A stretch of 64,000 nucleotides of DNA from Methyloversatilis discipulorum (GCA_943371575.1 CALRVI020000001.1:103953-167952); one strand, 5' to 3'. Counted from the first letter of the stretch, positions 37,079-60,874 are shown. Numbers and translations: made by a program. Notes: generated by a model not told the origin, from the sequence alone.

Positions 37079-37393
37079 TTACTTTTCTTCCGCCATGAGT
37101 CGTGGATAGTAAATCCACCAGAAGAGGAGAGAAATACAGACAAGCGGAGCATGAATCGCTAAAAGAGATAGCTTCTCTAAAGGCTCAGCCGGCCCGCGTG
37201 GCTCTCCATGCACGGCTTGAAAGATTGCGAGACTCAGACCAGCAGGGCTGAGAAGCGATGGAATTGGAGGAATAGGGGAGACAGATGTCTCCTTCCCATT
37301 CCTCCTAGATCTTCCACATAGATAAACGTAGAGCATGAAACAAAGATCTATGAAAACCCATCCAAGCAGGCCGAACAATATTCTTTCGATCAT
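37079..37393 (-). CDS. Small integral membrane protein, candidate immunity protein for the RHS toxin
   Basis: 104 aa with three to four hydrophobic helices (ILFGLLGWVFIDLCFMLYVYL, LSLAIFQAV, LLAIHAPLVCISLLFWWIYY). Its start overlaps the RHS stop by 4 nt (37390-37393), the usual toxin-immunity arrangement. Confidence 0.5.
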   Translation of the reverse strand: MIERILFGLLGWVFIDLCFMLYVYLCGRSRRNGKETSVSPIPPIPSLLSPAGLSLAIFQAVHGEPRGPAEPLEKLSLLAIHAPLVCISLLFWWIYYPRLMAEEK

Positions 37394-40300
37394 TCTTCAG
37401 GTGACCGGAAGTATATCCGCTGGCCCAGGAAGCCCTTACCTAGCTCGTGCATTCCTGGCGAGACAAGGTCACCCGCATCGACGGTTGCCGTTGTCGGTGC
37501 GCCCTTCGGCCTGCCCGCCAGAATATGGTTCCACCAAGTAGGGGGCCCCGTCTGAACCCAAGGGGAGTCGTTACCCCAATGAGACACCTGCACTTTTCCT
37601 TTCGCTGGGACTGATCGAAGGGTTGCTCCCCCAGTCAGGGCACCGACGGTGCCACCGAGTCCAACATCCCACCAGTCGATTTCTGCTCGCCATCCCATCT
37701 GCATGCTAAAAGCCTGTCCGCCCAGTGATCCCCCTGCTCCACCGAGTGATCCCGCGACGGCCCCGCCCGCGATTCCGCCGACACCCATTGCCCCCAGTGT
37801 CGGCAACGCTGCTGCAACAACGAGTAGTCCAACTGCCCCTCCGACCGCTCCAGCAGCAGCACCTCTTCCCGCGCCACGCAGTGGATCCTCAGAATCGCTC
37901 AACGCCCCAAAAATCGCTCCGGTAAGCGCACTAGCACCGATAAATATCAGGATCGGGACAAATTTCCCTGTAGGATCAGCGAGTCTTACCGGACTACCAT
38001 GACAGTACGCATACCAGTTCCGACCATCCTTCGCCGGATCCCGGGTGAGGAAGCGCCCGGTCGAAGGATCGTAGTAGCGGTGCCCCAGCAGCTGGAATCC
38101 TGTATCCGCATCAGACTGGTACCCAAACGGCCCCGCGTGGCCGAATGGGCTGCGCCAGGTGCCGGTCGACGAGGCCACATTCCCAAAGGCATCATAGGTA
38201 CGCGAAGCCGACGCCACTGCCGAGACAGAAGTCTGCAGATCCGCATTCTTCAGCCCAGCATGGAAGGTCGTCTTGACTCCGCCGCGAACCTCGCCTGAAG
38301 TGACGTACCGAGCCAAACCATCGCCCAGAACCGGCGCAGTGACACCGACCCCATTGCGCCGAATCGAGCGTGAGCCCAGTGAGTCCACCACCCCAACCCG
38401 GGTGTCGAGGCCATTGTAGGTGTAGGAATTCGTGGTCATCCCGCCGCGCGTGATGCTCGTGATGCGGCTCTCAAAGTCGTAGGCAAACGATGTCACGCCC
38501 GAAGCGCGGGTAATCGCGGTGGTGCGCCCCGCAGCATCGTAGCTAAAGGTGCGCGGATCCGCGCCGCCCGTGATCGCGGTGAGCTTGTCGCCGCCATCAT
38601 AGGAATAGTTCTCGGTGACCCCGTTCACCACGCGGGTCTGGCGGTTGCCATTGCCATCATAGGTGTAACTCGCGGTGTAGCCAGCTCGGGTTTCCGAATT
38701 CAGCTGACCCGCCAGGTCGTAGCCGTAGTTCGTCACCACTCCGCCTTGGTTCAGCGAAGTCACCTGAGAAGCGGCGTCGTAGCCATAGGTGCGCGAGCCA
38801 AGCACCGTCTGACCCACCCGGGTCAGGATGCTGGAGACTCGGTTGCGCGAATCGTAGGCGTAGGTGTCGTAAGTGTTGTTCCCATGGAACTTGTTCAGCA
38901 ATCGCCCCGCCGAATCATATTGGAATGCGGTCAGATCCCCAAAGGAATCCGTCACCAGATCCACGCGCCCGGCCGAATCGTAGCGATTCGTTGTGGTTCC
39001 AAGGCCCACTTCCGTCATCGTCAGCGGCTGACCCGCCGTGTTGTAGGTGTAAGTCTGCTGACCCTGAGGCGTGGTGAGGCTGGTCACTTCGCCCGCTGAG
39101 TTGTAAACCCACGTGCTCGTGCCCGTGCCATCCACCATCGTGAGCTGGCGACCCGCGCTATCGTAGGTGAAGCTCGTATCGGTCTGGCCCACCGGATAGT
39201 CCACCAGAGTGGCCCGGCCTGCATCGTTGAAGCCGTACTGAATTGTCTGACCCAGCGGATTGGTGTAGGCCGTGGTTTCCCCGGTGCCGCTGTAGCTCCA
39301 CTGCTCGACCGCGCCATCCGGCATGGTGAGGCTGGCGGCCTCGCCTCGGTCGGTGTAGGTGTAGGTTCTGGTGAACCCACGAGCGTTCGTGACCGAGGTC
39401 AGATAGCTCACGTTGTTGTAGCCAAACGTGGTGGTTTCGCTCTTGGCGTTGGTCGCCGAGATCTGGCGACCAATATCATCCAGAACCCTGGTGCCGGTGC
39501 GCCCCAGCGGATCCGTCGCCGCCGTGATGTTGCTCTCCAGGTCGTAGGAGATGCTGGAAACCGCGCTTCCAGGCTCAGTAACCGAAGTCACCCGGCCCCA
39601 GTTGTCGTAGCCAATCGAGGTGATATTCGAGGCCGGATCCGTCACCGAAGTTGGGCGGCCCAGGGTGTCGTAGCTCGTCCAGCTGGTGATGTTCCCTGGC
39701 TGAGTCGCCGAGGTCACATCGCCTTGACTGTTGTAGCCCACCGAGCTCTGGCGGCCCATCGCATCGGTCGAGGTCGCAAGTTCGCCAAAGCTGTTGTAGG
39801 TGTTGGTCACCTGGGTGCGGTTCAGCGCATCTTTGGCGGTGAGCAGATTCCCCGTAGTCGAATAGGTGAAGGTCTGAACCTGGCTCAGAGGATTCGTCAC
39901 CGTGAGCAGGTCGTGGGTGACGGGATCGTAGGTGTAAGTGGTGGTCTGGTTGAGCGGATTCTTGCTCGTCAGGCGATTGCCCTTCGTGTCATAGGTGGAA
40001 GTCCAGACTTTGCCCCGCTCATCCGTCACGGTGAGCACGTTCTTGGCAGAGTCGTAGGTGTAACTGCGGCTGAATCCCGCTTGGTCAACTTCCGAAGCAA
40101 TCAGGCCATTGGAGTAGTTGTGAACAATCGTCTTGCCGTTCGGCTGAGTGAGAGTGACGCTCGCCGTCCCGAATGTCCAGGTGGTAGTGTGACCCAGCGG
40201 ATTGCTGAAGCTGGTCAGGCGCTCGCTGGTGTCATAGCCCATCGTCCAGACCTTGTTTCGCAGGTCGGTTTCGGTCAGGATGTTGCTCTGAGCGCTATAG

Positions 40301-41388
40301 GTGAAGTTCCGGTCATGAACCACCCCATCCAGCACCGGGTAGGCGATGGCGGTGAGGTCGTTGTTGGAATCGTGGGTGAACGTCCAGACCCGGTTGGTCG
40401 GATCCGTCACGCTGGAGATGAGGCCATTTCCGTTGTAGGCAAAGGTCAGGGTGCGCGTTCCATCCGTGACCGTGGTGATCTTGTCGCTGGAGTTGCGGTT
40501 GACCGTGATCTGGTTGCCGTGAGCATCCTTGACCTGGGTCAGACGACCATTTGCGTTGAACTCAAGCACGCTCCTGAACTTGCTTGTGAGAGTCCACGTT
40601 CCGTTTGAATTCTTGACAAGGTTGTCATAGACTCCGGCGGGCGGGGTGAAAACGCCTCCCGACTCGGTATACGGGTGCTCCAGCCCATGACCATAACGAA
40701 TAATCGCCGACGATCCAGGCGTGTGCGTGACCTTTACATCGTAAGAATGGCTCCAGCCTTTGCCAAGATCAAAGGAGTACGCGCCAATGGAGTTGTGGTG
40801 GAGCGTGAAGTTCACCGCCGTGTCGCCCCGAGCTGACCATCGCACGATCGGGTAGTTGGCATGGCGGTTTCCGGTGTTCGTGTTCAGAGCCGATCCGCCT
40901 CCGAATCCGCCGCCTCCGCTCGGGCCACCCGCGCCTCCACCGGTACCGCCACCGGATCCTCCTCCGGGGCCAGAACCTTCTCCACCGCTCTCCCCGCCCC
41001 CCGATCCGCCGCCGCTCTGCGCAACCGCCAGGCCATAGATGGGAAGCATCGAGACCATGAGATCTGCTTCCGCGGTAGGGGCCTGGCGAGCCTCAATCTG
41101 CCTCACCCGGGCCAGATCCCCGAGGAGCTTCGGAGTCCACATCCCTCCTCGTCCCACCGGATCCCGCCCCGGATTCGCCCCCTTCACCACCGGAGTTGGC
41201 CGATCCGTATAGTGCGCCCGAATCTGGCGGGAAAGTCCCTCGAGGCCTGCGTGGCCACGGTGTACTGCCTCAGTCAGCGCCGGATTGATCCCGATTGCTG
41301 CCGCGCTGTACGCCATCGTGATAGCAAGGGTGGTGCTCAGAGCGCGAGCTGTGCGGCGAAAGATCAGGGTTTCAGTGAAAGTCTTCAT
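37390..41388 (-). CDS. RHS/YD-repeat polymorphic toxin with signal peptide, Gly-rich linker and glycine-zipper C-terminal domain
   Basis: Start ATG 41388 preceded by GGAGA. MKTFTETLIFRRTARALSTTLAITMAYSAAAIG is signal-like. Dozens of YD repeats (e.g. YDSAGR, YDTKGN, YDLAGQ, YDGNGN). RHS core end is GHRYYDPSTGRFLTRDP...YAYCHGSPVRLADPTGK, followed by a 190-aa tail. The ORF track extends a further 190 codons upstream, not adopted here. Confidence 0.9.
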   Translation of the reverse strand: MKTFTETLIFRRTARALSTTLAITMAYSAAAIGINPALTEAVHRGHAGLEGLSRQIRAHYTDRPTPVVKGANPGRDPVGRGGMWTPKLLGDLARVRQIEARQAPTAEADLMVSMLPIYGLAVAQSGGGSGGGESGGEGSGPGGGSGGGTGGGAGGPSGGGGFGGGSALNTNTGNRHANYPIVRWSARGDTAVNFTLHHNSIGAYSFDLGKGWSHSYDVKVTHTPGSSAIIRYGHGLEHPYTESGGVFTPPAGVYDNLVKNSNGTWTLTSKFRSVLEFNANGRLTQVKDAHGNQITVNRNSSDKITTVTDGTRTLTFAYNGNGLISSVTDPTNRVWTFTHDSNNDLTAIAYPVLDGVVHDRNFTYSAQSNILTETDLRNKVWTMGYDTSERLTSFSNPLGHTTTWTFGTASVTLTQPNGKTIVHNYSNGLIASEVDQAGFSRSYTYDSAKNVLTVTDERGKVWTSTYDTKGNRLTSKNPLNQTTTYTYDPVTHDLLTVTNPLSQVQTFTYSTTGNLLTAKDALNRTQVTNTYNSFGELATSTDAMGRQSSVGYNSQGDVTSATQPGNITSWTSYDTLGRPTSVTDPASNITSIGYDNWGRVTSVTEPGSAVSSISYDLESNITAATDPLGRTGTRVLDDIGRQISATNAKSETTTFGYNNVSYLTSVTNARGFTRTYTYTDRGEAASLTMPDGAVEQWSYSGTGETTAYTNPLGQTIQYGFNDAGRATLVDYPVGQTDTSFTYDSAGRQLTMVDGTGTSTWVYNSAGEVTSLTTPQGQQTYTYNTAGQPLTMTEVGLGTTTNRYDSAGRVDLVTDSFGDLTAFQYDSAGRLLNKFHGNNTYDTYAYDSRNRVSSILTRVGQTVLGSRTYGYDAASQVTSLNQGGVVTNYGYDLAGQLNSETRAGYTASYTYDGNGNRQTRVVNGVTENYSYDGGDKLTAITGGADPRTFSYDAAGRTTAITRASGVTSFAYDFESRITSITRGGMTTNSYTYNGLDTRVGVVDSLGSRSIRRNGVGVTAPVLGDGLARYVTSGEVRGGVKTTFHAGLKNADLQTSVSAVASASRTYDAFGNVASSTGTWRSPFGHAGPFGYQSDADTGFQLLGHRYYDPSTGRFLTRDPAKDGRNWYAYCHGSPVRLADPTGKFVPILIFIGASALTGAIFGALSDSEDPLRGAGRGAAAGAVGGAVGLLVVAAALPTLGAMGVGGIAGGAVAGSLGGAGGSLGGQAFSMQMGWRAEIDWWDVGLGGTVGALTGGATLRSVPAKGKVQVSHWGNDSPWVQTGPPTWWNHILAGRPKGAPTTATVDAGDLVSPGMHELGKGFLGQRIYFRSPEE

Positions 41389-42008
41389 CTGGTCTCCGTT
41401 TGATGCTCGCAATAGTAACAGGACCTCGTCTTGGAAACAAGAAAAAACATCGAAGTTAACGGAAAACCGGGGTGACGGTGAGTGGCCCCGGTTCAAAATT
41501 GCTGAAATTGCAGACACAGAGCCATGCCGTTGCTGGGCCTGCCGACGGTAGGTGGCGGTACAGGGAACGGGAGACGACTCGACCCGGTGGTCTCCACTGC
41601 CGGCTGGTGGAGCGATCAAGGCTCCACGATGACCGCCGCTGATTGCGAACGGGAAAAACGACACCACGACCTCTTCCCCCCCCAGGGAGACGGCAGGGGC
41701 CGTTTTGAACCTAGGTGGCAGTAGACATCCGTCCGAAATCAAACTGTTGCCTAAGGTGAGCGAAATCCGTACCCCATTGAAAACTGGGGTACGGAGGACG
41801 GCCTCGAGTATCTCAAGTACGCCACCTCCATGAAAATTTCGGACTAGATTCACAATTCTACGTGGCAGGTCAAGTGGAAGAACGAGCTTCAAAATGCCAG
41901 AGTAATCGAGTGCTGGGCTCACTAGATATTCCTCAGGCCCAACAATATATAACAACATCTCGGCAGCATGCGGCCCGCGAGGAAGAAGTAATTCTAAGCG
42001 AAGGAACG

Positions 42009-42647
42009 TCAGGCCCGATAGTCATCATCCTCTAAAAAAGGATGCCATCTTTGCTCCCATTCAGCCACAACTTCCTCCTTCTCCCGTACGTACAGTTCAA
42101 GTTCCGGCAACAGATCTGGTCGGCTAGCATCAATCAATGATCGCAACTGGCCAATCAGCGTGTCGTGTAACGACATTCGCCTCTCATAGTCCTTCTGTCG
42201 ATTCACTCGCTGTTCAAAATGCTTCGTCACCTGCCGACGATTCAGATGGAGTCGATCTACCATGTACTTTGCAGGTTCAGAAATTCCTTGCAGCTCGTGA
42301 TGCACCGTCCGCTCGAAATGATCGTCGTAATCTACAACGCACGGATCCAAGTAGCCTTTCCCATGTGTTAGTGGGTCGTCATGTGGCCAGTCATCACCTT
42401 TGAATGTGTTGCAAACACAGCACGCATAAAGCACATTAGAGTACTCGAGTGTAAGCTGCGGAAATTTGCTCTTAGGACGAAAATGATCAACCGCAAAGCC
42501 TCGGATGCCGCCCACCTCGTTCTCGTGGAGCCCACAGTAAACGCACTCAAAAGAAAAATCCAACCTCAGGTGAGGCTTAAAGTCCTTATACCGCCTTACT
42601 ACCCCGGGATCCCTATTCTTGACACGCAATGCCATTTCGCAACTCAC
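42009..42647 (-). CDS. HNH endonuclease (PtuB/TIGR02646-like)
   Basis: FECVYCGLHE...GFAVDHFRPKSKFP...NVLYACCVCNTFKGDDWP gives CxxC, the D-H catalytic pair and CxxCN-x2-K, a beta-beta-alpha-Me finger. The GTG start overlaps the upstream stop (GTGA). Confidence 0.8.
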   Translation of the reverse strand: MSCEMALRVKNRDPGVVRRYKDFKPHLRLDFSFECVYCGLHENEVGGIRGFAVDHFRPKSKFPQLTLEYSNVLYACCVCNTFKGDDWPHDDPLTHGKGYLDPCVVDYDDHFERTVHHELQGISEPAKYMVDRLHLNRRQVTKHFEQRVNRQKDYERRMSLHDTLIGQLRSLIDASRPDLLPELELYVREKEEVVAEWEQRWHPFLEDDDYRA

Positions 42648-43276
42648 CCCCGACTCTTGGTCTGCCTAATGAGATCTTCCAATCTAGCCAGTAAGGCCTC
42701 CTCGCGGGCAAGGAACTCTCGATCTTGGTCGGCTTTAAAGCCCAAGTAGGAGTCTGTGGGCCGTTGGATTTCCAGCCGAATCTGATCGAGGCGGAGTGAC
42801 TCACTCTCTCCGATATCACCTGAAATCTTCTTGTCAATTAAGACCGAAAGCTCAAGTAGCCTCTCCGATAACGAACCCTGATACTGCCCAACCCTTCTTT
42901 CAATTCTCATCATTAGCGACCTTGCGTGATCCCGTACCAGATCTTTCGGGAATACATTGTCAACCGAGCCGCTCTCCTCATGATCTTCAACGTCACCAAC
43001 GTGGCTAGTCAGCATAAACAGAGGCACGTCCTGCCTGATGCCTCGGAGGTAGCTGGCCAGGGCTGTACCGTCGTACTGCACAAGAGCATCAAGTCGATGA
43101 TCGATAATAAATCCTGCGACGTCACGATTGGCGATAAGCGCAGCCACTTCATCGATGCGTTGCGGTGGGTTCAGAATCTCGATAGAAAGCGACGAGGAAG
43201 CTTCACCTAGAAGAAACTGATACTCTTCAGCTTCGCTCGGCTGGTCATCGATGAGGAAAATAGTAGGCTGACTCAT
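42644..43276 (-). CDS. Stand-alone response-regulator receiver domain protein with coiled-coil C-terminal tail
   Basis: TIFLIDDQ (acidic pair D10/D11), GFIIDHRL (phospho-acceptor D59), PLFMLTSH (T90/S91) and NVFPKD (K111). The last ~90 aa are heptad-like and charged, with no DNA-binding or enzymatic output recognised. ATGA overlap with the kinase gene. Confidence 0.75.
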   Translation of the reverse strand: MSQPTIFLIDDQPSEAEEYQFLLGEASSSLSIEILNPPQRIDEVAALIANRDVAGFIIDHRLDALVQYDGTALASYLRGIRQDVPLFMLTSHVGDVEDHEESGSVDNVFPKDLVRDHARSLMMRIERRVGQYQGSLSERLLELSVLIDKKISGDIGESESLRLDQIRLEIQRPTDSYLGFKADQDREFLAREEALLARLEDLIRQTKSRG

Positions 43277-45462
43277 CGTTCAGGCACCCCAAGGGGAAAG
43301 AGGATCGTGAACTGCGCCCCCCCAAGATCCGAGACGCATTCAACTTCCACCTTTCCTTCGTAGTTTGTAAGTACTGACTTCACAATCGCTAAACCCATTC
43401 CGGTACCAACAGGCCGACCAGATGCATCAACACGTGTGCTGAACATAGGGTTGAAAATATCTGAAGCATTCACTTCAGGAATCCCGCGGCCTGAATCCGC
43501 AAACTGAATTTGAACGACGCCTTCCGGCAGGATTGCGGAGCGAACGCGTATCTGTTTTTGATCAGGTTCGGTGAACCGCAGAGCCTCTACTGCGTTGGTC
43601 AGTAAATTGACGACAATCGCCTCCAAGTCCATCTGGAAACCCAAAAAAGAAGGATTTGTTTCAGCTAAACCTTCTAGATCCACGCGAATCCCTTTGCTTT
43701 CAAAGAATTGCTGAAAAGAGCGAGTAAGATTCGTGATTATCTCATTTACGTTGAGTTTTTTGCGTTGTCGCCTATCTCTTTTCATACTTCCAAGCGCATA
43801 CTGGCCCCAGGCCTGAACTTTTTGCGCCTCAAACTCAATAACCTCAACGTGCCTGCGGAGGTCATCAAGCTTAGACCCAGAAGTGTCATCGATTGAGCGT
43901 CTGCTCATAGTCACACGGTTTAGGATACTTGTGACTGGTTGCGCCGTCTCGTGACCGAATGCCACCATCGCAATTCCAGTCGTAGCAAGGCCGTGAAGCA
44001 ATTGTTGCTCTGTTTGTACCGCACTTACTGTACCAGCCACGCCGGCGAGGTCGGCCGCCATTTCGTTCATCGACTTGAGAGCGTCGCGCAATTCAGTTAC
44101 AGGAGGGGTCTCGGGGAACAGAGATGGTGCGTCGGCACCCTCGATCGCACGCTCAAGTGTCTTCTTTACCGTTTCAATCTTGGGGCGGAATCGCTCTATA
44201 ACCTCATCTGGCTTTTGCCTAGGAATCTTGGCTGACTGTTGATGTTGTGTGACCCGATACCGTTCGAGCTTTTGAACCAAAAAGAGCATGAACTTGCGAA
44301 GATCATTAAGCGCGACATTGTCGACTAGTCCTTCGCGATTGGTCTGGTCGTATAGCGACATATTGTCCTCCTTAGTAATGTGCACCTCACCGACGATTTG
44401 ATTGCCCGCAATCCGGTAACCAGCCGAGCCAACTCCACCTGGGCTTCCTACGCGTCGTGCATTTAATGAAAGCCAATCCCCATTCTCACCAGGTTCGCCA
44501 TACGGGCGCACCCAAAATCCGTCTCGATAGACGCGTATACCTTGGAAGCGATCCAAGAACTGCACAACGTGCCTTTTTGTCATCATAGCATCGCTAATCT
44601 CGGTAGCCTGTCTAAGGTACAAGTGCAAGGTCGTCCTGATCGGGCCGCAAAGTGGGAACGTACCAGGCGCGACGTCTCCGAATGCATCACGCCACTCATC
44701 AGTGAATGACATAGAGTCGCTGGAGCGATTAGTGATTGTCGTTGTGATAGTGCCGCTGCTTGAAAGGTCAGCCTCCAAAGTCATTTCGGCAGCCTCTATC
44801 ATTGTGGTGTGAATAGGGCCCGAAAGGTCGTCGTAGGGGCAGTGAAGGCTTATAGAAAAATCTCGCTCGGTGTCGCTAAATGGTGGAACAAGTAGCGAGA
44901 GCTCATTTCTGAGTTTGACGAAGTCGACTCTCGTCCATTCATCTCGAAGTCCTGACAAAGTTATTGTCGTACCGCTCTCTCGGGAAGCACCTGCGTGTGA
45001 AGTCTGGATTGGGTGCGTAATGTCTCCTAAGTCTCCGCTTTCAACTTCATATTTAGACCATTCTATGAAAATTTCAGTTCGAGTCCCTTCTCCTTGATGC
45101 TGAGTCGCCAGTTTGGTATGTGTCGCTAGTCGATCCAACACAAGACGACCGATGCCCTTTTCCCCAACCTTTTTTCGTCCTTTTGTTGTCAGCGGCGAGC
45201 GCTGCTTATTTCCGGTGCTTATGACCAACCACTTTTCTTCGATGTCGCTCCTTGTCATTCCATCACCATTATCGGAAATGATCATCTCCATTTCAGTTTC
45301 GCCTGGAGCAAACATGACATCTACTTGTTGCGCGTCGGCATCGTAAGCGTTTTTGACCAGCTCCACCACTCCGGTCGCAGGGCTAGATATCGCGTCGCGA
45401 CCGAGCATTTGCATTGTTCTCGGCGAGACTCTGAATGATACGGAATCGGGGTTATTCGTCAA
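43273..45462 (-). CDS. Hybrid ATPase: N-terminal GHKL (HATPase_c_3, MORC/Hsp90/MutL-like) module + C-terminal histidine-kinase transmitter (H-box + HATPase_c)
   Basis: N-terminus: VVELVKNAYDADA, ISDNGDGM and GEKGIGRLV (Bergerat N, G1, G2 boxes). C-terminus: AFGHETAQPV (H-box, H504), VVNLLTNAVEAL (N), FADSGRGIP (G1), IFNPMFSTR (F) and GTGMGLAIVKS (G2). No TM segment. The TTG start overlaps the methyltransferase stop (TTGA). Confidence 0.8.
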   Translation of the reverse strand: MTNNPDSVSFRVSPRTMQMLGRDAISSPATGVVELVKNAYDADAQQVDVMFAPGETEMEMIISDNGDGMTRSDIEEKWLVISTGNKQRSPLTTKGRKKVGEKGIGRLVLDRLATHTKLATQHQGEGTRTEIFIEWSKYEVESGDLGDITHPIQTSHAGASRESGTTITLSGLRDEWTRVDFVKLRNELSLLVPPFSDTERDFSISLHCPYDDLSGPIHTTMIEAAEMTLEADLSSSGTITTTITNRSSDSMSFTDEWRDAFGDVAPGTFPLCGPIRTTLHLYLRQATEISDAMMTKRHVVQFLDRFQGIRVYRDGFWVRPYGEPGENGDWLSLNARRVGSPGGVGSAGYRIAGNQIVGEVHITKEDNMSLYDQTNREGLVDNVALNDLRKFMLFLVQKLERYRVTQHQQSAKIPRQKPDEVIERFRPKIETVKKTLERAIEGADAPSLFPETPPVTELRDALKSMNEMAADLAGVAGTVSAVQTEQQLLHGLATTGIAMVAFGHETAQPVTSILNRVTMSRRSIDDTSGSKLDDLRRHVEVIEFEAQKVQAWGQYALGSMKRDRRQRKKLNVNEIITNLTRSFQQFFESKGIRVDLEGLAETNPSFLGFQMDLEAIVVNLLTNAVEALRFTEPDQKQIRVRSAILPEGVVQIQFADSGRGIPEVNASDIFNPMFSTRVDASGRPVGTGMGLAIVKSVLTNYEGKVEVECVSDLGGAQFTILFPLGVPER

Positions 45463-46799
45463 GAACGCATCCCCCCTTCATCACGGTTCCACGGCAACTC
45501 CCTCACAGCACGTACCGTCAGGTGGCGGCATCGTATTCGTTGATCCATCCAGCGAGTCGATTCTTCAGATCGCAAATGCTCCAGCAACAGCCTGCTGATT
45601 TTGCCACCTTTCGCTTGCAGAATGAGCAGGTGATTGTCGACAAAAACCGGCTCTGTTCCCAGCACGAGAGTTGCGCTAAGCCTAGGCGATTCACCTGGCC
45701 TGCTGGTTCGCCGGATGGCCACAAATGGCGGGCAGAACGCTCGGCCAGAATTAGTGAGAAGTGGTGCTTGGGCCGCATCGAAGACCTCAGAGCCTGCAAG
45801 AATCCTGGCGTTGATGAATCTGCGTGTAGCACCTTGAGCCAGGTCTCGGTGTGGAACCACGGTACCGACACTAACTTCGTACTGGTCACACAGGGTGCCC
45901 ATAGCACTAGCCTCGACCCAGCGGAATGTTTTGCCCTTACCTCTGGTTCCTGAGAGGAGAAACACGTCGATGTCCGTATGCTCATCGAACTGGCCCATTC
46001 TGACTACTTGGTCGACTCTTAGCATCTCCTCTAGCTCCGATCTCCACAGTTGGTACCGACTTCCTGACCGTAACACATCGGGGAGTATGGCGCGAACTCT
46101 TGCACCGGTTGGAAGTTGCGAGATCGAGCGCAGAGCGAATAACGCCGCAGAGCTCACTTTTCCGCGAGCAAAGGTAGTGCCCCTTGGCGCAATGGTCGAT
46201 GTGTATGGGGGATTGAGTAGCATTAGGCTGCAATCTGGCGGGCAAGACTGCTGAGCGCTATCGGCACAACTGATGTTGGGGAAGTATTCAGATGGGTTGG
46301 CGAACATCTTTGACTTAGTTCTTTGCTGCGCGAGGAGTACCAAACGTGCTCTTGCTGCTCTGACAAAAAGATCTTCACGATCAAATCCATGAAGTATCTC
46401 ACCCCATTCCACAAGTGTTTCGTGTAGATCGCTAGAGACCGGAAGCCGCGACGCAGCAGCGATGAGAAGGTCGCCTGCCCCACACGTAGGGTCGTAAACA
46501 CGCTTGAACTGATCCGCGGGAATGCGGGATGTCACACTTTTCCGAAGCTTTGAGCTGGTGAAGAACGCCCCAATACTCCGCCGTGTCGTGATGGACACGG
46601 CTTCCCGGAGCCTCTCAGAGACCAGCCCGTTAAGATTCGCCTGGATCATCCGACGTCGCTCCAGGCACGAATTGCCTTCAGTGCCAGTCGCTAGGTTCTC
46701 GATCAGCTCAACGTGCCCAAGAAATGGCAGTAAACCAGATTCATCTTCGAGAGAATACGCAGAACCCAAAAGAGCACCCAGTGCCCGGCGGTCAATCAC
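45459..46799 (-). CDS. Gamma-class N6-adenine DNA methyltransferase (Eco57I/TaqI-like) with C-terminal target-recognition region
   Basis: IGAFFTS (motif X, GxFxTP-like), VYDPTCGAGDLLIAA (motif I, AdoMet) and LMLLNPPY (motif IV, NPPY). GTG start with AGAGGAA about 8 nt upstream. Confidence 0.85.
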   Translation of the reverse strand: MIDRRALGALLGSAYSLEDESGLLPFLGHVELIENLATGTEGNSCLERRRMIQANLNGLVSERLREAVSITTRRSIGAFFTSSKLRKSVTSRIPADQFKRVYDPTCGAGDLLIAAASRLPVSSDLHETLVEWGEILHGFDREDLFVRAARARLVLLAQQRTKSKMFANPSEYFPNISCADSAQQSCPPDCSLMLLNPPYTSTIAPRGTTFARGKVSSAALFALRSISQLPTGARVRAILPDVLRSGSRYQLWRSELEEMLRVDQVVRMGQFDEHTDIDVFLLSGTRGKGKTFRWVEASAMGTLCDQYEVSVGTVVPHRDLAQGATRRFINARILAGSEVFDAAQAPLLTNSGRAFCPPFVAIRRTSRPGESPRLSATLVLGTEPVFVDNHLLILQAKGGKISRLLLEHLRSEESTRWMDQRIRCRHLTVRAVRELPWNRDEGGMRS

Positions 46800-46997
46800 T
46801 TTTGAATTCCTCTAATCATGCGGGCACCTAAGTAAGCAGGACCTCAGCTTGGGACGTTGCCAACCGATTTGGCACTTCAGATTTCGTATCCCAGGGTTCA
46901 TCGCACCTGCCCCAGCCCACCAAGTAAAGCAAACTCAGTCGTCCAATCACCGCTGATTTCACCGCGACTCGGAGTGTACCCACCCTGTTTGACGTAC

Positions 46998-47024
46998 GGA
47001 AAGGGTGCGGTCGAAATCGCACCC
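46998..47024 (-). terminator. Candidate intrinsic terminator after the beta-helix gene
   Basis: The minus strand reads GGGTGCG-ATTTCGAC-CGCACCC followed by TTTCC, 22 nt downstream of the stop at 47047. It separates the phage-like module from the methyltransferase operon. Confidence 0.4.
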
Positions 47025-47046
47025 GCGCGTGAACTTCTCCGCAAAG

Positions 47047-48144
47047 CTATTGCGATGAAACATCGCTGAGAACCTTAATTCGCATGATTGGATACCAACC
47101 TTCTCTGAACTCCTCGATGCTGAGCGGCGGCCTGATTCGGTACCCGTGGGCGACGTCGGCGAGGATCCCGCGATTCCCACTCGCGTAGTTCGGGCCGAGC
47201 TGGCCGACGAATTCCATCTGGTTCCAGCCGCCCTGGTTGCCGGACGCCACGTTGTCCTGCATGAGCGACCCTTTTGAGTGCTCCAACCCGATCCCGTAGT
47301 CACCAAACCCCGTCGCCGTGTTGCCCTTGATGAGGGCCGCGATCACTCCGTATGCGGAGAGACCAGAGAGCCGCCCAGGCCCGACGAATGTGCAGTTGAT
47401 CACCCGTAAGCCCTTGATGAGGGCATCCTCGCGCCATGTCGCCCAGCGATACGTCTCGCCGCGGCGGAATACCTGCTGGTCGCCTTCCCAGCGCGGGACG
47501 ATCTCCAGGGTCACCGAATCCTCGGTATTTCCCACCACTCGGAACCGGGAGCGATCAGGGTCTAAGCCCGGGCCCCAGATATCCCAGGTATTGCGAGCCG
47601 CGAGCCGCAAGGGGAACGTCGCCTCAAGTGGCGCGCGGATCTGCAGCGTGATCCGGCCTGTACCGTCACCGGCAGCCGTCCGGCTTGCCGTGATCGGATT
47701 GATGTGCCCGAGGCGATTCGTGCCACCCTTCTCGGCCTTCGGGTCATACCAGAACCCATTCTCCGGGCCGTCTTTGAACTCCCAGGGATGACCTGGAACC
47801 ACAGCGAAGAGCTCCCACTGATTGCCCGCGCCGATGAACTGCGTGTTTTCAACCGTGAGCCCGTCCGTTCGGATCGCGAGGAGCTGATGAAGAAGGCCTC
47901 CCGTGAAGGCTGAGTCCTCGATTCTGCTTCCGTGGGCCTGGCGAAGCACGACGCGCCCATCCCCTTCCAGCTTTAACGTGACGCCATCGATCCTCACCGG
48001 AGCCTCGAAGACGAGGTCGGCCCGCACCGTGATCACCCGATCCTTGAGGATCACGGGAGACGTGATGACGCGCTCATTTGCTACCGTCGCCGGCACGGAA
48101 GTCGCCCCGATCGCCAGGGCCGCAAGAAGGTTCGCAAGAACCAT
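47047..48144 (-). CDS. Right-handed parallel beta-helix (pectate-lyase-fold) protein, candidate tail-associated depolymerase
   Basis: Start at MVLANLLAALAIGATSV (one-base stop/start overlap, TGATG, with the upstream gene). Successive short repeats such as VINCTFVGPG, IKGNTATGFGDYGIGLEHS, MQDNVASGNQGG and ASGNRGILADV are typical PbH1 coils. Confidence 0.55.
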   Translation of the reverse strand: MVLANLLAALAIGATSVPATVANERVITSPVILKDRVITVRADLVFEAPVRIDGVTLKLEGDGRVVLRQAHGSRIEDSAFTGGLLHQLLAIRTDGLTVENTQFIGAGNQWELFAVVPGHPWEFKDGPENGFWYDPKAEKGGTNRLGHINPITASRTAAGDGTGRITLQIRAPLEATFPLRLAARNTWDIWGPGLDPDRSRFRVVGNTEDSVTLEIVPRWEGDQQVFRRGETYRWATWREDALIKGLRVINCTFVGPGRLSGLSAYGVIAALIKGNTATGFGDYGIGLEHSKGSLMQDNVASGNQGGWNQMEFVGQLGPNYASGNRGILADVAHGYRIRPPLSIEEFREGWYPIMRIKVLSDVSSQ

Positions 48145-49409
48145 CAGAGGTACCCCAGGTTCCTTGCTTGCTTCGTCGTGGTGAGGTTCGCTAGGCACAC
48201 CTCCGCCATTTCGATGATCCCCGTGCTCGATGTCCCCGCGTTCAGCATATTGGTCATGTAGAGCTCAAAGAGCAGAGAGGTCGTGTTCGCGGGCACCTTG
48301 TAGGCGTAGGCCATCGTTCGCCACTCGTTTCCAGAGTCGATCACCCCGATCCAAGGAGAGATGAAGGATCCAGTTGCACCGATCGGGCGGATGTTGTTCA
48401 CGAAGGTCGATTCCTGCCCGCTCACCAGGCAGTTTCGCATTCGGAACTTCATGGAGAAGAGCATCCAGTCCCCAACGGCGGCGGATGCCCCGATTGCGAG
48501 CGAAGTACTGAAAATGACGAGGGCCTTGCCACCGGTTTTGGTGACCTGCTCCGCGCTCCCTTTGAGCCCAACGGTGTCCTGAGCAAGCGTGGCGCGAGTG
48601 AATGTTCCGACCGGAGTGTCATACCCATAGGTTCCGTAGCTTCCGGGCGCGAGAGCGAGCGGCACCCCCGTCTTGGTGCCCTGGGTGCCCATCAGGGTCA
48701 GGTCATGCTCGCGAGGCATCCAGCTTCGGACGAAACTATCAAAGACCAGGCCGAGGGCCACATATCCGCGGGGGTTCGGATGAACACCGTCCGTGGTCAA
48801 GGTTCCTTGTTGGCCATCCATAACCGCGAACAACCCGGTAACCAGCGGCCAGCCGGTCTCAGAGGACAGCTGAGCAAGCCAGGCATTATGCAGAAGTACT
48901 TCGTTCCGGTCTTTGCCCGATGGGATCATGAGCTCGCAGAGGATCGGCACGACGCCCGCCTGAGCGATGTTGTTGAGATCCGCTCGGATCCTGTTTCGCA
49001 GATCACGTCGCTGCGCCGCTGTAAGCGGAGATCCCGAAGACGGCATGTCGTTGTGGCCAAGCCAGTAGAAGGCTGCGTCCGGCTGGTCGTGAAGGAAATC
49101 GAATCGGTAAGCCGTGGACTCGAATCCTCCCACCGAGAGCCCGCTATAGCCAAAGCTCGATGCGGGGGTGAGCAGGGCGGGCATGTTGCTTGATCCGCTC
49201 ACGTTGAGGATGCGTGTGCTGGACTGGAGGCAGATTTGGGAGAGCATCCCGCCGATAAATCGCCACGTGGTCGATGGGTTCGAGCCAGCTGTGATGGAGT
49301 CACCGACCATCGTGACCCGAACTGGCCGGAGCGCATTGATTGAAGAAAGTCGCTCCGCCCCACTCGGCCAGCCCCGAACACCTTCTACTCTCCCGATCGC
49401 GACGCTCAC
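48144..49409 (-). CDS. SGNH/GDSL hydrolase domain protein with C-terminal beta-rich domain (tail-associated esterase candidate)
   Basis: VTMVGDSITAGSN (block I, GDS) and TDGVHPNPRGY (block V, DxxH). The C-terminal ~190 aa have no motif. Confidence 0.65.
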   Translation of the reverse strand: MSVAIGRVEGVRGWPSGAERLSSINALRPVRVTMVGDSITAGSNPSTTWRFIGGMLSQICLQSSTRILNVSGSSNMPALLTPASSFGYSGLSVGGFESTAYRFDFLHDQPDAAFYWLGHNDMPSSGSPLTAAQRRDLRNRIRADLNNIAQAGVVPILCELMIPSGKDRNEVLLHNAWLAQLSSETGWPLVTGLFAVMDGQQGTLTTDGVHPNPRGYVALGLVFDSFVRSWMPREHDLTLMGTQGTKTGVPLALAPGSYGTYGYDTPVGTFTRATLAQDTVGLKGSAEQVTKTGGKALVIFSTSLAIGASAAVGDWMLFSMKFRMRNCLVSGQESTFVNNIRPIGATGSFISPWIGVIDSGNEWRTMAYAYKVPANTTSLLFELYMTNMLNAGTSSTGIIEMAEVCLANLTTTKQARNLGYL

Positions 49410-49723
49410 GAGGCCACCACTCCCAGAGCGATGTTGCGGGTACCCATCGCATGGTAAGGAGCCATCGCAATGGCATCGACGATGTCCGGCTCTTCACCAA
49501 GGCTGTTCACCGGCGTAATGATCAGATCCACGGGAGCTGTGCTGATAACCGCCCCAACCGCATCGGCAGGTGGTTCAAGAGATGTCCAGCCCGCCGGAGA
49601 AATAGCGACCTGGAAGAAGCCCGCATGAAGGCCGCTCGAATCCAGGAAAACACCGGAGACGAGCCCCGATCCGCTTCGCGCGGCGAGCCTGAAAGACTGG
49701 ATGCCGGGAGTGTAGTGGTTCAC
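49406..49723 (-). CDS. Hypothetical small protein in the tail-fibre region
   Basis: 105-aa ORF with a 4-nt overlap to the downstream SGNH gene, co-oriented. Confidence 0.4.
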   Translation of the reverse strand: MNHYTPGIQSFRLAARSGSGLVSGVFLDSSGLHAGFFQVAISPAGWTSLEPPADAVGAVISTAPVDLIITPVNSLGEEPDIVDAIAMAPYHAMGTRNIALGVVAS

Positions 49724-49729
49724 ATGGGT

Positions 49730-52700
49730 TCAGACCCGTTTCCAGGTCAATCCATCATCAAGGCTTCGCCACTCAGCGGGATCGGTTTCGCCCTCTGGGA
49801 TGGCTGAAAGGATCCACGTATCGGTGGAGTCATTCGCCGGGAAGACGTGGAACGTGCCGTCCTCGACCTTGATGTCGGCCGTGGTCTGATCCTTGGCAAA
49901 GAAGGCCGCGCCGGGGGATGCTTGACCTGGCCCCTGGCGACGGATGCGGATCTTGCCAGGGCCTGAGGTGCCGCTGTCGTAGACGAGGCAGGCCAGCACA
50001 CGCCAGCCGCTTCCGCTTTGATTGCCTGTGGGGAATGCTCCAGCCATGATGGTCACCGGTTCAGACCAGCTCCGGCCATCATCGAGAGACTTCGCCTGCA
50101 TCACCGAGCCAGCTCGCTCCCACAGAGCCCAGACCGGAGAAGTGCTGCCGAGGCCGTGAAGTGTTGGCCTCCTGTCATCCGGCAGGCCGATTACCACGTC
50201 TTCAGCCCAAGGCAGTCGCGAGAGGTGATCGCGTGAGCGGGTGATCCGGACCCCTGTCTCCACCGACCAAGCCCGGTAGAAGTGACCCAGGCGGTTGATG
50301 AAGTTCCAGATCCAGCCGCCGGCTTCTGCCACTGCGCCGACCCAGAACGCGCCGCGCCAGGGCCGCATTCGGAACCACTCTTTCCCGCCCCAGTGAGCCG
50401 CCCACAGATAGCCTTCGGATCCCGTGGTGGCGATGGTGTGCGCTCCAACATGCCATCCCGCGGGAGCGGTTACCGGCGTCAGGCTGTTCACCCCTCCCCC
50501 GGCGACATCGCGTAGCTCAAGCGATTTCGGCGCTATGATCGGCATCTGGTTTCCGAGGTGCGAGTAAGACCTCTGCTCAAGTGCCCCGATCGGGAGCCAG
50601 CTCGCCACCGAGAGCCGCCGCCCTTCCGGGAAGCAAGCGATTGGTGGCACTGCCGAACGAAACGTGTTCGAATAGATCCCGATCGGGCCGACCGAGCTCG
50701 GAGCAAATCCGGAGATCGTCGTGAGCTGCTTGTCCGGATCTCGCCAGAGGTGATCGATGATTGTCCACTCTTCGCCTGGGACGAACTCATCCCCCGCTCG
50801 CGTGGTGAGATCGGTGAGAGCTGACCGCCCGCGCAGGAACACGTTCTCCCAGGCCCACAGATCGCCAATGGTGGTCGCCTGGCTCGGACCGCGTGTCTGG
50901 GGCACCGTCAGAGGGATGTCCAGCAGGTAATCGTAAAACGAGAGGCAGCCATACCGGACTCCAGGGCCATCATCGAAGAGGATCGCGGCCAGGCCGCCCG
51001 TCTCGTGATAGACCTTCGCGGTGTTCCAGGGAGCCATGTGGAACACGGGATGATGGATGATCGCGGGGAGGCCCGTATCGATCCTGGTGAATTCCCAGCG
51101 GATCTTCGTCGGGGTCCGCGAGGGCATGAGACCAAACGAACTGATCCGGCGCTCATCGAGGGAAGCGGCAAAGCTCTCGTCATCCGGCTCGATGGACACA
51201 TAGGTGTCGACCAGCTCGCCCTGGCCAAAGTCGGCGAGGGCATCGGTTGCCCACTCGCTCGCGAGACCAGCAGGGATCCGGTGTGTCCCGGCAGTGGATG
51301 CGATGAGAACCTTGGTGCCATCCGCGCCCACCGCGAACACGGAACATGCCGAGATGTTCGTGCCATCCCAGCCGATCTCGATCCGGTCGGCAAGCGTCGG
51401 GGTCATGTAGGGGAAAGCAGTGAAGCTCGCCATCTCGAACTCCATTTCATCGGCATCAACGAAGATGTTCGTAGCACCCACGAGGCCCGTGCCAGATCCG
51501 AACGTGAACCGAGGAGTCGAGTCTTCCGTGGTCTCGAAGCTGTCTGGGTGATCTGCGCGATCAAGGATGCCGAAGCGATTAATGCCCCACCAGCAAGGAA
51601 GGCCGAGAATATACGTGGCGAGCCCCGTGACCCCGTTCTGGTCGATCGGCTCGGCCACCACATTGATCCGGTGCTTAGTGTCCTGCCCAGAAGGGAGAGC
51701 CGGATGAGTGACGTGTTGCTGGCGAGCTGCGTACCAGTACGCGATCGGGGAATCCCCTCCCATGAGTTTCCAGCGCGAGCTGCTTGCGGCCGAGTCGGGC
51801 GGAAACCAGAGACCATAGCTCCAGTGAGGATTCACCCAGGTGTTTACAAACGGCGCAGGATATTCCGCGTGATCGAGGGCAGGAGAGGGCGAGCCGGGTG
51901 CCTGCAGGCTCCAGACAACTCCCCACCCGCGCTGACCAAAGACGGAGGGGGTGCCATAGAGCCGGTTGTAGCTCGGCGAGGCTTGCGCGTAGACCGTCCG
52001 GTCAAGGAGGTCATTCAGGCCCGCGCCGCCTGTCCTTGCGAGCAGCTCGCTCTTCGTTGGATAGACCGTCGTGGTGGCGGTTTCCGTGGTGTTGGTTCCC
52101 CCACCGGCGCACAGATCCTCCTCGATATAATCCTGCCGCTCAAACCCATAGCCATGCGCGCCCCATCGTGAGATCAGGCCCTCGTAATCGGGGTTCATGG
52201 CCTCGACGCTCGCCGGCAAATTCGGCAGGATCCAGACCGGAGACGTGCTGAATTCTTGCTGCAGGAGTGATCCCGTGTTCGTTTCCTTGTACTCGCTCGT
52301 GACCGTGACCGACCAGGTGTTCGACCCCGAGGCGTAGGGGCTGGCTGGAGCAATTTCGATGGGCAGAGCCGTAGGTGATCCACCCTTGGGGGTGAAGCGC
52401 CATCCGCCCGAGACGTTGGAGATGGCATGAGTCTCCGAGCCTCCGGGACCTGGCTCAAAACAGCCATTGACGACAATCAGAGGGTCAGCCGCGGCGCCGC
52501 CCGTGAGGTACGGCGGAATCCCGATCGCTGGGATGGATGCGGGCACTCCGGTCATTGTTCCGGAGACATCGAGCGGAACCCCTCTTTGCCACTCGAGCAC
52601 ACCGTTAACCCACCACTGCACGTTAGTTGCCGTGATCCTCAGCGTTCCCGAAGCATTCATCCAGAGCTTCAGATCGATGAGCTTCACGACCTGGCTGACG

Positions 52701-53068
52701 ACCGAGATCCCGGGATACGTGCGAGTTTGCACGGCGCCGAGGATCGGGGCCTCGATGGTCGCAGTCGCTTCGACGAGTCCACCCATAGCCCCGTAGCCGT
52801 GGAGCCTGATCCCATTCGCCGTGAGAAGGTAGTCCGGCGTGAACATCGATTGGATCTGGCCCGAGGCGGCGGCGGTGGAGGTGAATCCGCCGAATGTCCA
52901 CACCGACGAGGACGTGGGATCCACGTTGAGTTGCATCTCCCAGACGTCGTACTCCGCGAGCAGTCCACCAAAGGGCGCGGGCTCGCCGCTAGAGACGAGC
53001 TCCGCCGAGAACCACCCCAGCGGGCTGAGGTTCCGGTCAAACCAAAGCTCAGGCCCGAAGAAGTTCAT
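49730..53068 (-). CDS. Large distal-tail/host-recognition protein with C-terminal BNR/Asp-box repeats (sialidase-like propeller)
   Basis: 1112 aa. C-terminal Asp-boxes SLDDGRSWSEP and SLDDGLTWKRV (S-x-D-x-G-x-x-W). Lies in the tail-tip gene block. Confidence 0.55.
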   Translation of the reverse strand: MNFFGPELWFDRNLSPLGWFSAELVSSGEPAPFGGLLAEYDVWEMQLNVDPTSSSVWTFGGFTSTAAASGQIQSMFTPDYLLTANGIRLHGYGAMGGLVEATATIEAPILGAVQTRTYPGISVVSQVVKLIDLKLWMNASGTLRITATNVQWWVNGVLEWQRGVPLDVSGTMTGVPASIPAIGIPPYLTGGAAADPLIVVNGCFEPGPGGSETHAISNVSGGWRFTPKGGSPTALPIEIAPASPYASGSNTWSVTVTSEYKETNTGSLLQQEFSTSPVWILPNLPASVEAMNPDYEGLISRWGAHGYGFERQDYIEEDLCAGGGTNTTETATTTVYPTKSELLARTGGAGLNDLLDRTVYAQASPSYNRLYGTPSVFGQRGWGVVWSLQAPGSPSPALDHAEYPAPFVNTWVNPHWSYGLWFPPDSAASSSRWKLMGGDSPIAYWYAARQQHVTHPALPSGQDTKHRINVVAEPIDQNGVTGLATYILGLPCWWGINRFGILDRADHPDSFETTEDSTPRFTFGSGTGLVGATNIFVDADEMEFEMASFTAFPYMTPTLADRIEIGWDGTNISACSVFAVGADGTKVLIASTAGTHRIPAGLASEWATDALADFGQGELVDTYVSIEPDDESFAASLDERRISSFGLMPSRTPTKIRWEFTRIDTGLPAIIHHPVFHMAPWNTAKVYHETGGLAAILFDDGPGVRYGCLSFYDYLLDIPLTVPQTRGPSQATTIGDLWAWENVFLRGRSALTDLTTRAGDEFVPGEEWTIIDHLWRDPDKQLTTISGFAPSSVGPIGIYSNTFRSAVPPIACFPEGRRLSVASWLPIGALEQRSYSHLGNQMPIIAPKSLELRDVAGGGVNSLTPVTAPAGWHVGAHTIATTGSEGYLWAAHWGGKEWFRMRPWRGAFWVGAVAEAGGWIWNFINRLGHFYRAWSVETGVRITRSRDHLSRLPWAEDVVIGLPDDRRPTLHGLGSTSPVWALWERAGSVMQAKSLDDGRSWSEPVTIMAGAFPTGNQSGSGWRVLACLVYDSGTSGPGKIRIRRQGPGQASPGAAFFAKDQTTADIKVEDGTFHVFPANDSTDTWILSAIPEGETDPAEWRSLDDGLTWKRV

Positions 53069-54018: not shown

Positions 54019-54033
54019 ACTGGTTTAGACCAG

Positions 54034-54261
54034 CTACGGCACATTCACATCTGGAGTAAAGAGCCACTCCCCGAACGTTGGCGATCCCGGATCCGTGTCC
54101 TGAGCCTCCGCGATCGGGATCTCCGGTAAGGCCATGACCCTCGCGATGGCGCCCTCCATGTTCCGGTCGGTGGCCAGGACGTTCTCCTGGTAGGCGCGGG
54201 TGCCTCGACCTTGAGCCACCATGTTCTTCATTCCGGCTTTCTGTTGCTCGATTGCTCTCAT
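54034..54261 (-). CDS. Small hypothetical protein
   Basis: Start at MRAIEQQKAGMKNMV gives an ATGA overlap with the upstream 899-aa gene. The longer ORF to 54336 is rejected. Confidence 0.35.
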   Translation of the reverse strand: MRAIEQQKAGMKNMVAQGRGTRAYQENVLATDRNMEGAIARVMALPEIPIAEAQDTDPGSPTFGEWLFTPDVNVP

Positions 54262-56957: not shown

Positions 56958-56995
56958 CGGGGGTCTGCTGGTTCAGACCTTTTTCCGCAAATTGG

Positions 56996-57415: not shown

Positions 57416-57422
57416 TGCGCAC

Positions 57423-58220: not shown

Positions 58221-58267
58221 GTCCTAGGCTGATTGTAACCCAACGACCACTATTCTGCAATAGGGTT

Positions 58268-60710: not shown

Positions 60711-60874
60711 TAGCGGAACCTCACTTCCTTCCAGTCATGGGCCGGACCTTCGCAGGGCTTTGCGCCAGGCGGTGGATCTTCGCCTGCGGGCACTTCAATC
60801 ACCCGCACCTCTGCGATGTCGCCGCAACGGGTGTACCGGGTGCGGGTCTCCTCGAAAAATTGGACTTTGCTCAT
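60710..60874 (-). CDS. Small hypothetical protein (54 aa), translationally coupled
   Basis: ATG 60874..60872 overlaps the upstream TGA (ATGA), and its stop TAA overlaps the next ATG. Reads MSKVQFFEETRTRYTRCGDIAEVRVIEVPAGEDPPPGAKPCEGPAHDWKEVRFR. Absent from the ORF track, presumably because of its size. Confidence 0.35.
   Translation of the reverse strand: MSKVQFFEETRTRYTRCGDIAEVRVIEVPAGEDPPPGAKPCEGPAHDWKEVRFR

Follow-up and report, generated by a model that had tools for sequence, protein, structure and literature searches.

We describe a gene for a putative sensor kinase at positions 43273–45462 on the minus strand of a 64,000 nucleotide (nt) long stretch of DNA, called the window in the following, which is deposited under Methyloversatilis discipulorum (GCA_943371575.1 CALRVI020000001.1:103953-167952). 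The gene starts with TTG, encodes a 729 amino acid (aa) AbrB-like fusion of a GHL ATPase with a histidine kinase, and stands second in a row of four genes of equal orientation, which encode an N6-adenine methyltransferase, the kinase, a receiver protein and a PtuB-like HNH nuclease. Based on the results below, we hold with moderate confidence that it is the AbrB-type sensor kinase of an Ambrosia-like, restriction-modification (R-M) related anti-phage system of four translationally coupled genes, in which a relay operating at the protein level would control the nuclease. Judged by the homology of all four proteins, the cassette is a distant relative of Ambrosia; it is real and no longer new, and no new kind of system is represented by the window gene.

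Ambrosia (AbrR-AbrA-AbrB-AbrC-AbrD) is a validated anti-phage system of Pseudomonas aeruginosa, which stops phages of the Pbunavirus and Mesyanzhinovviridae groups (van den Berg et al., bioRxiv 10.1101/2025.09.30.679545). As score thresholds for its profile models, this preprint uses 100 bits for AbrA, 500 for AbrB, 150 for AbrC and 200 for AbrD. Its proteins are an XRE protein (AbrR, HipB-like), an N6-methyltransferase (AbrA), a kinase/Hsp90-like ATPase (AbrB), a receiver (AbrC) and an HNH protein (AbrD), and each of the substitutions AbrA T72A, AbrB N40A, AbrC D60A and AbrD H60A leads to a loss of defense (van den Berg et al.). The window proteins were aligned pairwise with the sequences from Table S1 of this preprint. 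Compared with the first 399 aa of AbrB, the window kinase is 38% identical over 391 aa (AbrB 12–397, E-value 1e-71); the methyltransferase is 35% identical to AbrA (2e-57), the receiver 27% to AbrC (3e-16) and the HNH nuclease 30% to AbrD (1e-17). N38 of the kinase is aligned with N40 of AbrB, D59 of the receiver with D60 of AbrC, and the nuclease motif DHFRP is aligned in AbrD such that H55 corresponds to the catalytic H60. The primer used for N40A encodes AYDADA, which places N40 in motif I of the ATPase head. Since AbrB N40A, equivalent to N38 in the window, abolishes Ambrosia defense, the GHL head is functionally required for phage defense in this homologous system.

The window cassette also shares the gene order of Ambrosia, i.e., an N6-methyltransferase, a kinase with HATPase_c_3 and HATPase_c, a receiver of about 210 aa and a PtuB-like HNH protein of about 212 aa. 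However, it is only 27–38% identical to Ambrosia and has no AbrR upstream. Further, Ambrosia was found in Gammaproteobacteria only (537 instances; van den Berg et al.), whereas the host of the window is probably an armatimonadote, as suggested by its alanyl-tRNA synthetase. This enzyme, encoded at 32577–35381, is 60–67% identical to its best named matches, which stem from Fimbriimonadaceae/Armatimonadota.

The kinase gene was read from TTG at 45462 to a stop codon at 43273–43275. A plus-strand reading of 43273–45462 was rejected, because that frame is full of stops and the minus strand carries the gene. The database copy of the protein comprises 713 aa and begins at M17. Since the conserved residues F10 and R15 as well as part of the alignment to AbrB precede M17, and TTG 45462 is the sole in-frame start in this region, the annotation probably misses the first 16 residues of the protein (45415–45462, minus strand). 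The TTG overlaps the methyltransferase stop codon, and a G-rich run similar to a Shine-Dalgarno sequence is found 8–10 nt ahead of it.

The first-pass annotation, made from the sequence of the window, had proposed a single polypeptide with two different Bergerat-fold ATPase modules, a head of the HATPase_c_3 type with N, G1 and G2 boxes and a complete histidine kinase core, but without a membrane or classical sensor domain. This architecture was recovered in full. Pfam detected HATPase_c_3 at residues 29–165 (E-value 4.6e-19) and HATPase_c at residues 611–724 (E-value 2.6e-25). In NCBIfam, residues 10–188 align with the N-terminus of the BbrUII/HgiDII restriction enzymes and residues of about 480–724 with many sensor kinases, e.g., AtoS, PhoR and CpxA. 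Among PDB sequences, residues 502–723 match HK853 and residues 478–709 a NifL-type kinase; CpxA and FixL chimera sequences also match within residues 478–724. No transmembrane helix was predicted in the kinase (the highest Kyte-Doolittle mean over 19 residues is 1.16), no PAS, GAF or HAMP domain was matched in Pfam even at an E-value <10, and a Cache domain was likewise absent from the matches. We conclude that the protein is cytoplasmic.

To assess conservation, the kinase was aligned first with 40 close and then with 55 diverse homologs, and all counts for the kinase refer to the latter. The head (residues 1–195; 44878–45462, minus strand) is a GHKL ATP-binding domain of the MORC/MutL/Hsp90 type, according to Pfam and PDB profile matches. 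All four GHKL motifs of the GHL ATPase module are present and conserved in the family, namely motif I (E34..N38), G1 (D64xGxG68), G2 (G100xKGxGR106) and motif IV (T165). D64, G66, G68, G100, K102, G103, G105 and R106 are invariant in all 55 homologs; 54 of them retain E34 and N38, and 47 retain T165. A profile of residues 1–412 matches MutL, MORC2/3 and HtpG in PDB, in each case over the GHKL part only. Thus, the N-terminal boxes belong to a true GHKL fold in the MutL/MORC/Hsp90 branch, and, by residue content, both ATP sites of the kinase are intact.

Between the two ATPase modules, the first-pass annotation had left about 300 aa unassigned. This region can now be assigned to a transducer-like domain, behind which lies a helical linker. 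An AlphaFold2 (AF2) model built from the homolog alignment (pLDDT 77) consists of the GHKL domain, an alpha/beta domain at about 196–382, three helices, a helical hairpin and the C-terminal ATPase domain. When this model was compared with PDB by Foldseek as a monomer, residues 1 to about 450 aligned over 445–480 columns with whole ATPase modules, i.e., DNA-bound MORC2 (9cdj), MORC3 (5ix2, 6o1e), SMCHD1 (6mw7) and Hsp90, with template modeling (TM) scores of 0.47–0.54 normalized to the target. Within the ATPase module, the second, transducer-like domain spans residues 196–382 (44317–44877, minus strand) and carries the signatures G308-IRVYRDGF-R317-V-x-PYG, D329-W-L and D372-QTN-R376-EG. The peptide IRVYRDGFWVRPYGEPGENGDWLSLNARR (residues 309–337) is the strongest signature of the family, and G308, W330, L331 and R376 (within D-Q-T-N-R-E-G) are invariant in 55 of 55 homologs. 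In GHL ATPases the second domain provides a basic residue for the gamma-phosphate, and R376 is a candidate for this role. The linker (residues 383–477; 44032–44316, minus strand) is predicted by AF2 with low confidence as three helices (383–411, 418–443 and 455–475). Its length is variable, with a spacing of 105–154 aa between R376 and H504 among homologs, and no heptad periodicity was found for it in the homolog alignment. Together, the structural matches argue moderately strongly that the middle of the kinase is built like the second, transducer-like domain of GHL ATPases, with a helical linker behind it. It is not a known small-molecule sensor; structurally, the region continues the MORC/Hsp90 ATPase module.

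The C-terminal part begins with a hairpin of the dimerization and histidine phosphotransfer (DHp) type (residues 478–560; 43783–44031, minus strand), which consists of helices 478–525 and 532–558 in the AF2 model and carries the predicted phospho-acceptor H504 next to E505 on its first helix. H504 is invariant in 55 of 55 homologs; E505 is a glutamate in 46 and otherwise D, Q or N. Neither the HisKA nor the HEF_HK model of Pfam matches this hairpin, despite its kinase-type H-E motif and fold. The catalytic ATP-binding (CA) domain follows at residues 561–729 (43276–43782, minus strand), with an N box (E614/N619/N623), a G1 box (D656xGxG660), an F box (F670) and a G2 box (G686xGxG690). N623, G658, G686, G688 and G690 are invariant in all 55 homologs, and at least 90% of these retain N619, D656 and G660. 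The DHp-CA region matches HK853, CpxA and YF1 by both sequence (PDB) and fold (Foldseek). Hence, from its sequence the histidine kinase core is complete, with all boxes present.

In the public annotation the protein is simply named a “sensor histidine kinase,” and it could accordingly be an ordinary housekeeping two-component kinase whose position beside an R-M system is accidental, or the remnant of a decayed gene. We find this hardly credible, given that no catalytic residue is lost, that translational coupling joins the genes, that their order is kept across many phyla (see below) and that the homologous Ambrosia system was validated experimentally.

The coupling of the four genes is evident from stop/start overlaps of 4 bp at all three junctions, which read TTGA (methyltransferase/kinase), ATGA (kinase/receiver) and GTGA (receiver/HNH). 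The first gene (45459–46799, minus strand) encodes an AbrA-like gamma-class N6-adenine DNA methyltransferase of 446 aa, identified by Pfam N6_Mtase and its homology to AbrA, with the motifs FFTS, DPTCGAGD and NPPY and partial PADLOC matches to MTase_I/II and mad2. The last gene (42009–42647, minus strand) encodes an AbrD-like HNH nuclease of the PtuB type with 212 aa, which is matched by Pfam HNH, by the PtuB model of PADLOC (E-value 2.6e-20) and by TIGR02646/PtuB of NCBIfam, and which has the motifs C36xxC39, D54-H55 and C76-C77xC79-N80. The cassette has a GC content of 49–55% (HNH 49.3%, kinase 50.2%, receiver 51.2%, methyltransferase 54.8%) compared to about 60% for the window. The upstream gap of 247 bp (46800–47046) contains short open reading frames (ORFs) only, none of which is a plausible helix-turn-helix (HTH) protein, and therefore no AbrR/XRE gene. 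A promoter and terminator scan gave no signals above those of shuffled sequences. The PADLOC library of 2023 has no model for this system and returned only partial matches (REase_II for the head, PDC-M43B, MzaB and TmtA).

The third gene (42644–43276, minus strand) encodes an AbrC-like receiver protein of 210 aa, recognized by its AF2 model (pLDDT 90.5), by Foldseek matches to DctD and other receivers and by homology to AbrC. Pfam barely recognizes it as a receiver (E-value 0.008). A receiver fold (residues 1–117) with D9, D10 and the predicted phospho-acceptor D59 is followed by a tail of three helices (118–152, 157–171 and 182–209). D59 and G70 are invariant in 45 receiver homologs, at least 90% of which retain D10. 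The tail lacks a beta-wing, neither Pfam nor NCBIfam reports an HTH in it, and Foldseek yields only matches to receivers with a linker. In NCBIfam, a weak match (E-value 7e-5) to the “LM5578_1851 family response regulator” (NF052378) was also observed for this gene; no paper naming LM5578_1851 was found.

GHL ATPases close an N-terminal gate upon ATP binding, and a C-terminal domain keeps the dimer joined. In the mechanism we propose, the four-helix bundle of the DHp domains would replace this C-terminal dimerization domain, and the ATP-driven closure of the head would be transmitted via the linker to the DHp domain, where it would toggle between kinase and phosphatase states. Closure would probably depend on a cue that infection provides on DNA, because relatives of the head occur in direct fusions with restriction or Shedu nucleases. 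The phosphoryl group on H504 would then be passed to D59 of the receiver, which in turn would license the HNH nuclease. Methylation by the first gene product could serve as a self-mark or provide the target. The analysis singles out conserved residues suited for mutation: E34/N38 in the head, R376 in the transducer-like domain, H504, the CA site and D59.

The cue might also be a metabolic one. According to this alternative, the head senses the nucleotide pool, i.e., the ATP or nucleoside triphosphate (NTP) level, rather than DNA, and the system reports a metabolic perturbation during infection. The head is indeed an intact ATP-binding module, and an interaction with intracellular NTP concentrations was speculated upon for related proteins (Bellieny-Rabelo et al. 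2021, PMC8011034). However, the closest functional relatives of the head act on DNA (BbrUII/HgiDII, DNA-bound MORC2, VcSduA and paraMORCs), and genes for DNA methyltransferases and nucleases closely accompany the family, which makes a pool sensor improbable in our view.

The output of the relay could be either transcriptional or at the protein level. In the transcriptional case, the kinase would sense infection and phosphorylate a receiver which, as a transcription factor, switches on the methyltransferase and nuclease genes, and the nuclease would have no direct partner. In Ambrosia, mNeonGreen replacing abrA or abrD was barely expressed before and strongly during infection, AbrC D60A abolishes defense, and the authors state that AbrC carries a winged HTH (wHTH) (van den Berg et al.). 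On the other hand, Response_reg is the sole entry for AbrC in the domain table of the same preprint. Since 4-bp overlaps link the four window genes, including those for the kinase and the receiver, the receiver would have to induce its own operon, and neither an XRE gene in the upstream gap nor a beta-wing or HTH in the receiver tail was found, as described above. Moreover, cassettes linked to a metallo-beta-lactamase (MBL) fold protein have a receiver tail of a different type, and in other clades the receiver is fused to a further, non-HTH domain. A transcriptional output is therefore rather unlikely for the window copy, although the reporter data of the preprint speak for a transcriptional component. 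Because the four genes are translationally coupled and lack an XRE gene, because the tail has no detectable DNA-binding domain, and because receiver tails and fusions differ between clades, we favor a direct control at the protein level, which would act through the helical tail of the receiver. Together with the conserved residues named above and the breadth and exchangeable effectors of the family (see below), the window cassette, a natural four-gene version without an XRE regulator, makes the choice between transcription and protein–protein signaling directly testable.

Several points weigh against the proposed mechanism. Besides the infection-induced expression of reporters placed in the Ambrosia operon, the wHTH stated for AbrC and the transcriptional control favored by its authors, the only AbrB mutant reported concerns the Asn of the head, with none in the H box or the CA domain. 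Phage grown on a host with AbrA only stays sensitive (van den Berg et al.), which argues against a simple self-mark by methylation. On the structural side, the middle domain has no sequence-level match in PDB (profile of residues 1–412), and its assignment as transducer-like is based on the lengths of the Foldseek alignments at the TM scores given above. The linker, which would have to transmit head closure, is modeled with low confidence (pLDDT <50 at 471–506) and shows no heptad register. Finally, the co-variation of receiver tail and effector may reflect mere co-inheritance of whole cassettes.

Homologs of the kinase were searched to determine how widespread its architecture is. The first-pass annotation had called for a survey of fusions between HATPase_c_3 and a kinase core, and these turned out to be common: both Pfam domains are present in all of the best 120 database matches, which are 690–840 aa long. 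A profile of head plus middle region retrieved 3,820 cluster representatives at an E-value ≤1e-30 (clusters at 50% identity). In a scan of one genome per species, the kinase family occurred in at least 583 species, and its hosts include Pseudomonas, Pantoea, Vibrio, Streptomyces, Bacteroidota, Chloroflexota, Planctomycetota and a Nitrosopumilus archaeon. Near-full-length homologs were also found in 86 plasmid records, including a conjugative plasmid of Campylobacter. All four cassette genes together are present in Ralstonia, Aggregatilinea, Deinococcus and others as well.

Synteny was examined for 79 loci from different species with enough sequence downstream of the kinase. A receiver-like gene follows the kinase in 69 of the 79 loci, and several of the remaining downstream genes have weak Response_reg matches. 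A PtuB-like HNH gene is found in 38 loci and the complete set of methyltransferase, kinase, receiver and HNH nuclease in 34. Variants of the cassette have an MBL-fold protein in place of the HNH nuclease, a methyltransferase moved downstream, or a C5-methyltransferase or HNH_2 nuclease along with a receiver that carries an additional conserved domain as a fusion. Regarding upstream regulators, the ORF lists of the other loci were noisy; the only clear cases are the Deinococcus copy (annotated HTH) and a MerR-like ORF in locus L048. A tree of the kinases tracks the cassette type rather than taxonomy (8 changes versus 31.8 in shuffles), with phyla freely mixed and the window kinase clustering with copies of the Chloroflexota type. 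This pattern is the signature of a mobile, modular defense system.

From the distribution and the variants, a broader hypothesis can be derived, which we offer tentatively. The phosphorelay would act on proteins, not promoters: a MORC-like, ATP-gated clamp would read incoming DNA and drive a kinase located at its dimerization end, and the helical tail of the phosphorylated receiver would directly license a PtuB-like HNH nuclease, whose place would be taken in sister clades by an MBL-fold nuclease or a receiver-fused domain. Ambrosia might then be one gammaproteobacterial branch of a “two-component restriction” class that extends over the prokaryotes, with roughly 3,800 clusters (at 50% identity) from many phyla of bacteria and at least one archaeon.

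Two-component kinases are usually expected to sense small molecules or signals from the envelope and to control transcription. Here, a GHL ATPase of the chromatin/DNA type would occupy the sensor position of such a kinase, with an output tied to a nuclease. Detocs, reported by Rousset and colleagues in 2023, is said to gate a defense effector by a histidine kinase phosphorelay, too. Reportedly, it has another sensor domain, an additional buffering receiver and an effector which degrades ATP and not DNA, and it lacks a methyltransferase. No Detocs (Dtc) model was among the PADLOC matches listed for the window proteins.

PtuB is the HNH nuclease of Septu, which is paired with and depends on the ATPase PtuA. 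The window nuclease resembles PtuB of Septu and retron Ec78 in matching the PtuB models of PADLOC and NCBIfam. In contrast to these systems, the cassette has no PtuA ABC-type ATPase, and the candidate controller of the nuclease is a phospho-receiver. The ATPase head has relatives in MORC/paraMORC proteins, BbrUII/HgiDII, VcSduA (GHKL-Shedu) and Tiamat, with which it shares the GHKL branch with motifs I–IV and the association with methylases and nucleases; the two-domain ATPase module is as in MORC2/3. However, in these proteins the ATPase is directly fused to, or a partner of, a nuclease or helicase, whereas in the window a histidine kinase core and a separate receiver are interposed between ATPase and nuclease.

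Soluble proteins with HATPase_c_3, HEF_HK and HATPase_c, followed by receiver-like proteins, were described in R-M contexts by Bellieny-Rabelo et al. (2021, PMC8011034), who proposed a descent from paraMORCs and the head as the sensor. Both the architecture of the kinase and the idea of a sensing head have thus been in print since 2021 and are not new. The first-pass annotation had likewise suggested the head as a possible sensor, e.g., a nucleotide- or DNA-dependent dimerizing clamp which drives autophosphorylation; this reading is plausible and has partial support. The families concerned, HEF_HK (PF19191) and Response_reg_2 (PF19192), have the same layout as the window genes, i.e., a soluble protein of HATPase_c_3, DHp and HATPase_c and a subsequent receiver-like gene among methyltransferases and nucleases. 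Nevertheless, the window proteins do not match PF19191 or PF19192 in Pfam even at an E-value <10. HEF_HK matches weakly in one of 55 kinases (0.0048) and Response_reg_2 in none of 45 receivers. Further, HEF_HK elements are mostly found with C5-methyltransferases, Vsr and HNH_2, whereas the window family is tied to an N6-methyltransferase and a PtuB-like HNH nuclease. Since the two models match almost none of its proteins, the window family is, on profile evidence, a sister branch of the HEF_HK elements with the same design. New here are the assignment of the middle region, a far wider distribution, variants with swapped effectors, a corrected start codon and a testable alternative to the transcriptional model.

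Regarding the surroundings of the cassette, a 1522 aa RHS-repeat protein (37390–41958; 12 RHS repeats and a weak DUF6531 match) is encoded directly downstream of the HNH gene, and a small overlapping ORF follows at 37079–37393. These two probably form a toxin/immunity pair unrelated to the cassette. Upstream, nine large co-oriented ORFs (47047–63309) were read as a phage head-tail block, but a prophage context is not claimed, as no PHROG match was obtained at an E-value ≤0.001. The two ORFs nearest to the cassette, the only ones scanned with Pfam, gave just a weak beta-helix match and a GDSL lipase match.

A few of the other loci deserve mention. Receivers linked to a C5-methyltransferase or HNH_2 nuclease (e.g., L029, 8156–9334, and L061, 8154–9209) carry a fused conserved C-terminal domain of 200–300 aa with the motifs GDI...LTPSCDL....K and SLDSPFAE..RF.RY.GR.G.PDL. 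This domain has no Pfam match, matches in PDB and PADLOC are confined to the receiver part, and it may be an uncharacterized effector or adaptor. On a metagenome contig (L003/L004; 3475–5817 and 15980–18286), the cassette lies between a DEAD/MZB helicase and a 1557 aa SACS/NOV_C protein, a Tiamat-like GHL nuclease; the locus looks like a defense island with two different GHL-ATPase systems. In locus L030 (2187–8736), tandem paralogous kinases of 711 and 688 aa flank one methyltransferase and are followed by a single receiver. The Nitrosopumilus metagenome-assembled genome (L017; 5986–9223) encodes a family member of 686 aa, a canonical receiver (Response_reg E-value 3.5e-10) and a 199 aa protein of no known family. 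Finally, the Campylobacter jejuni conjugative plasmid pCJ14980A (L087; 1–4454) carries the kinase, a receiver fusion of 340 aa and a convergent dcm gene, adjoining an AAA ATPase and a HicAB pair.

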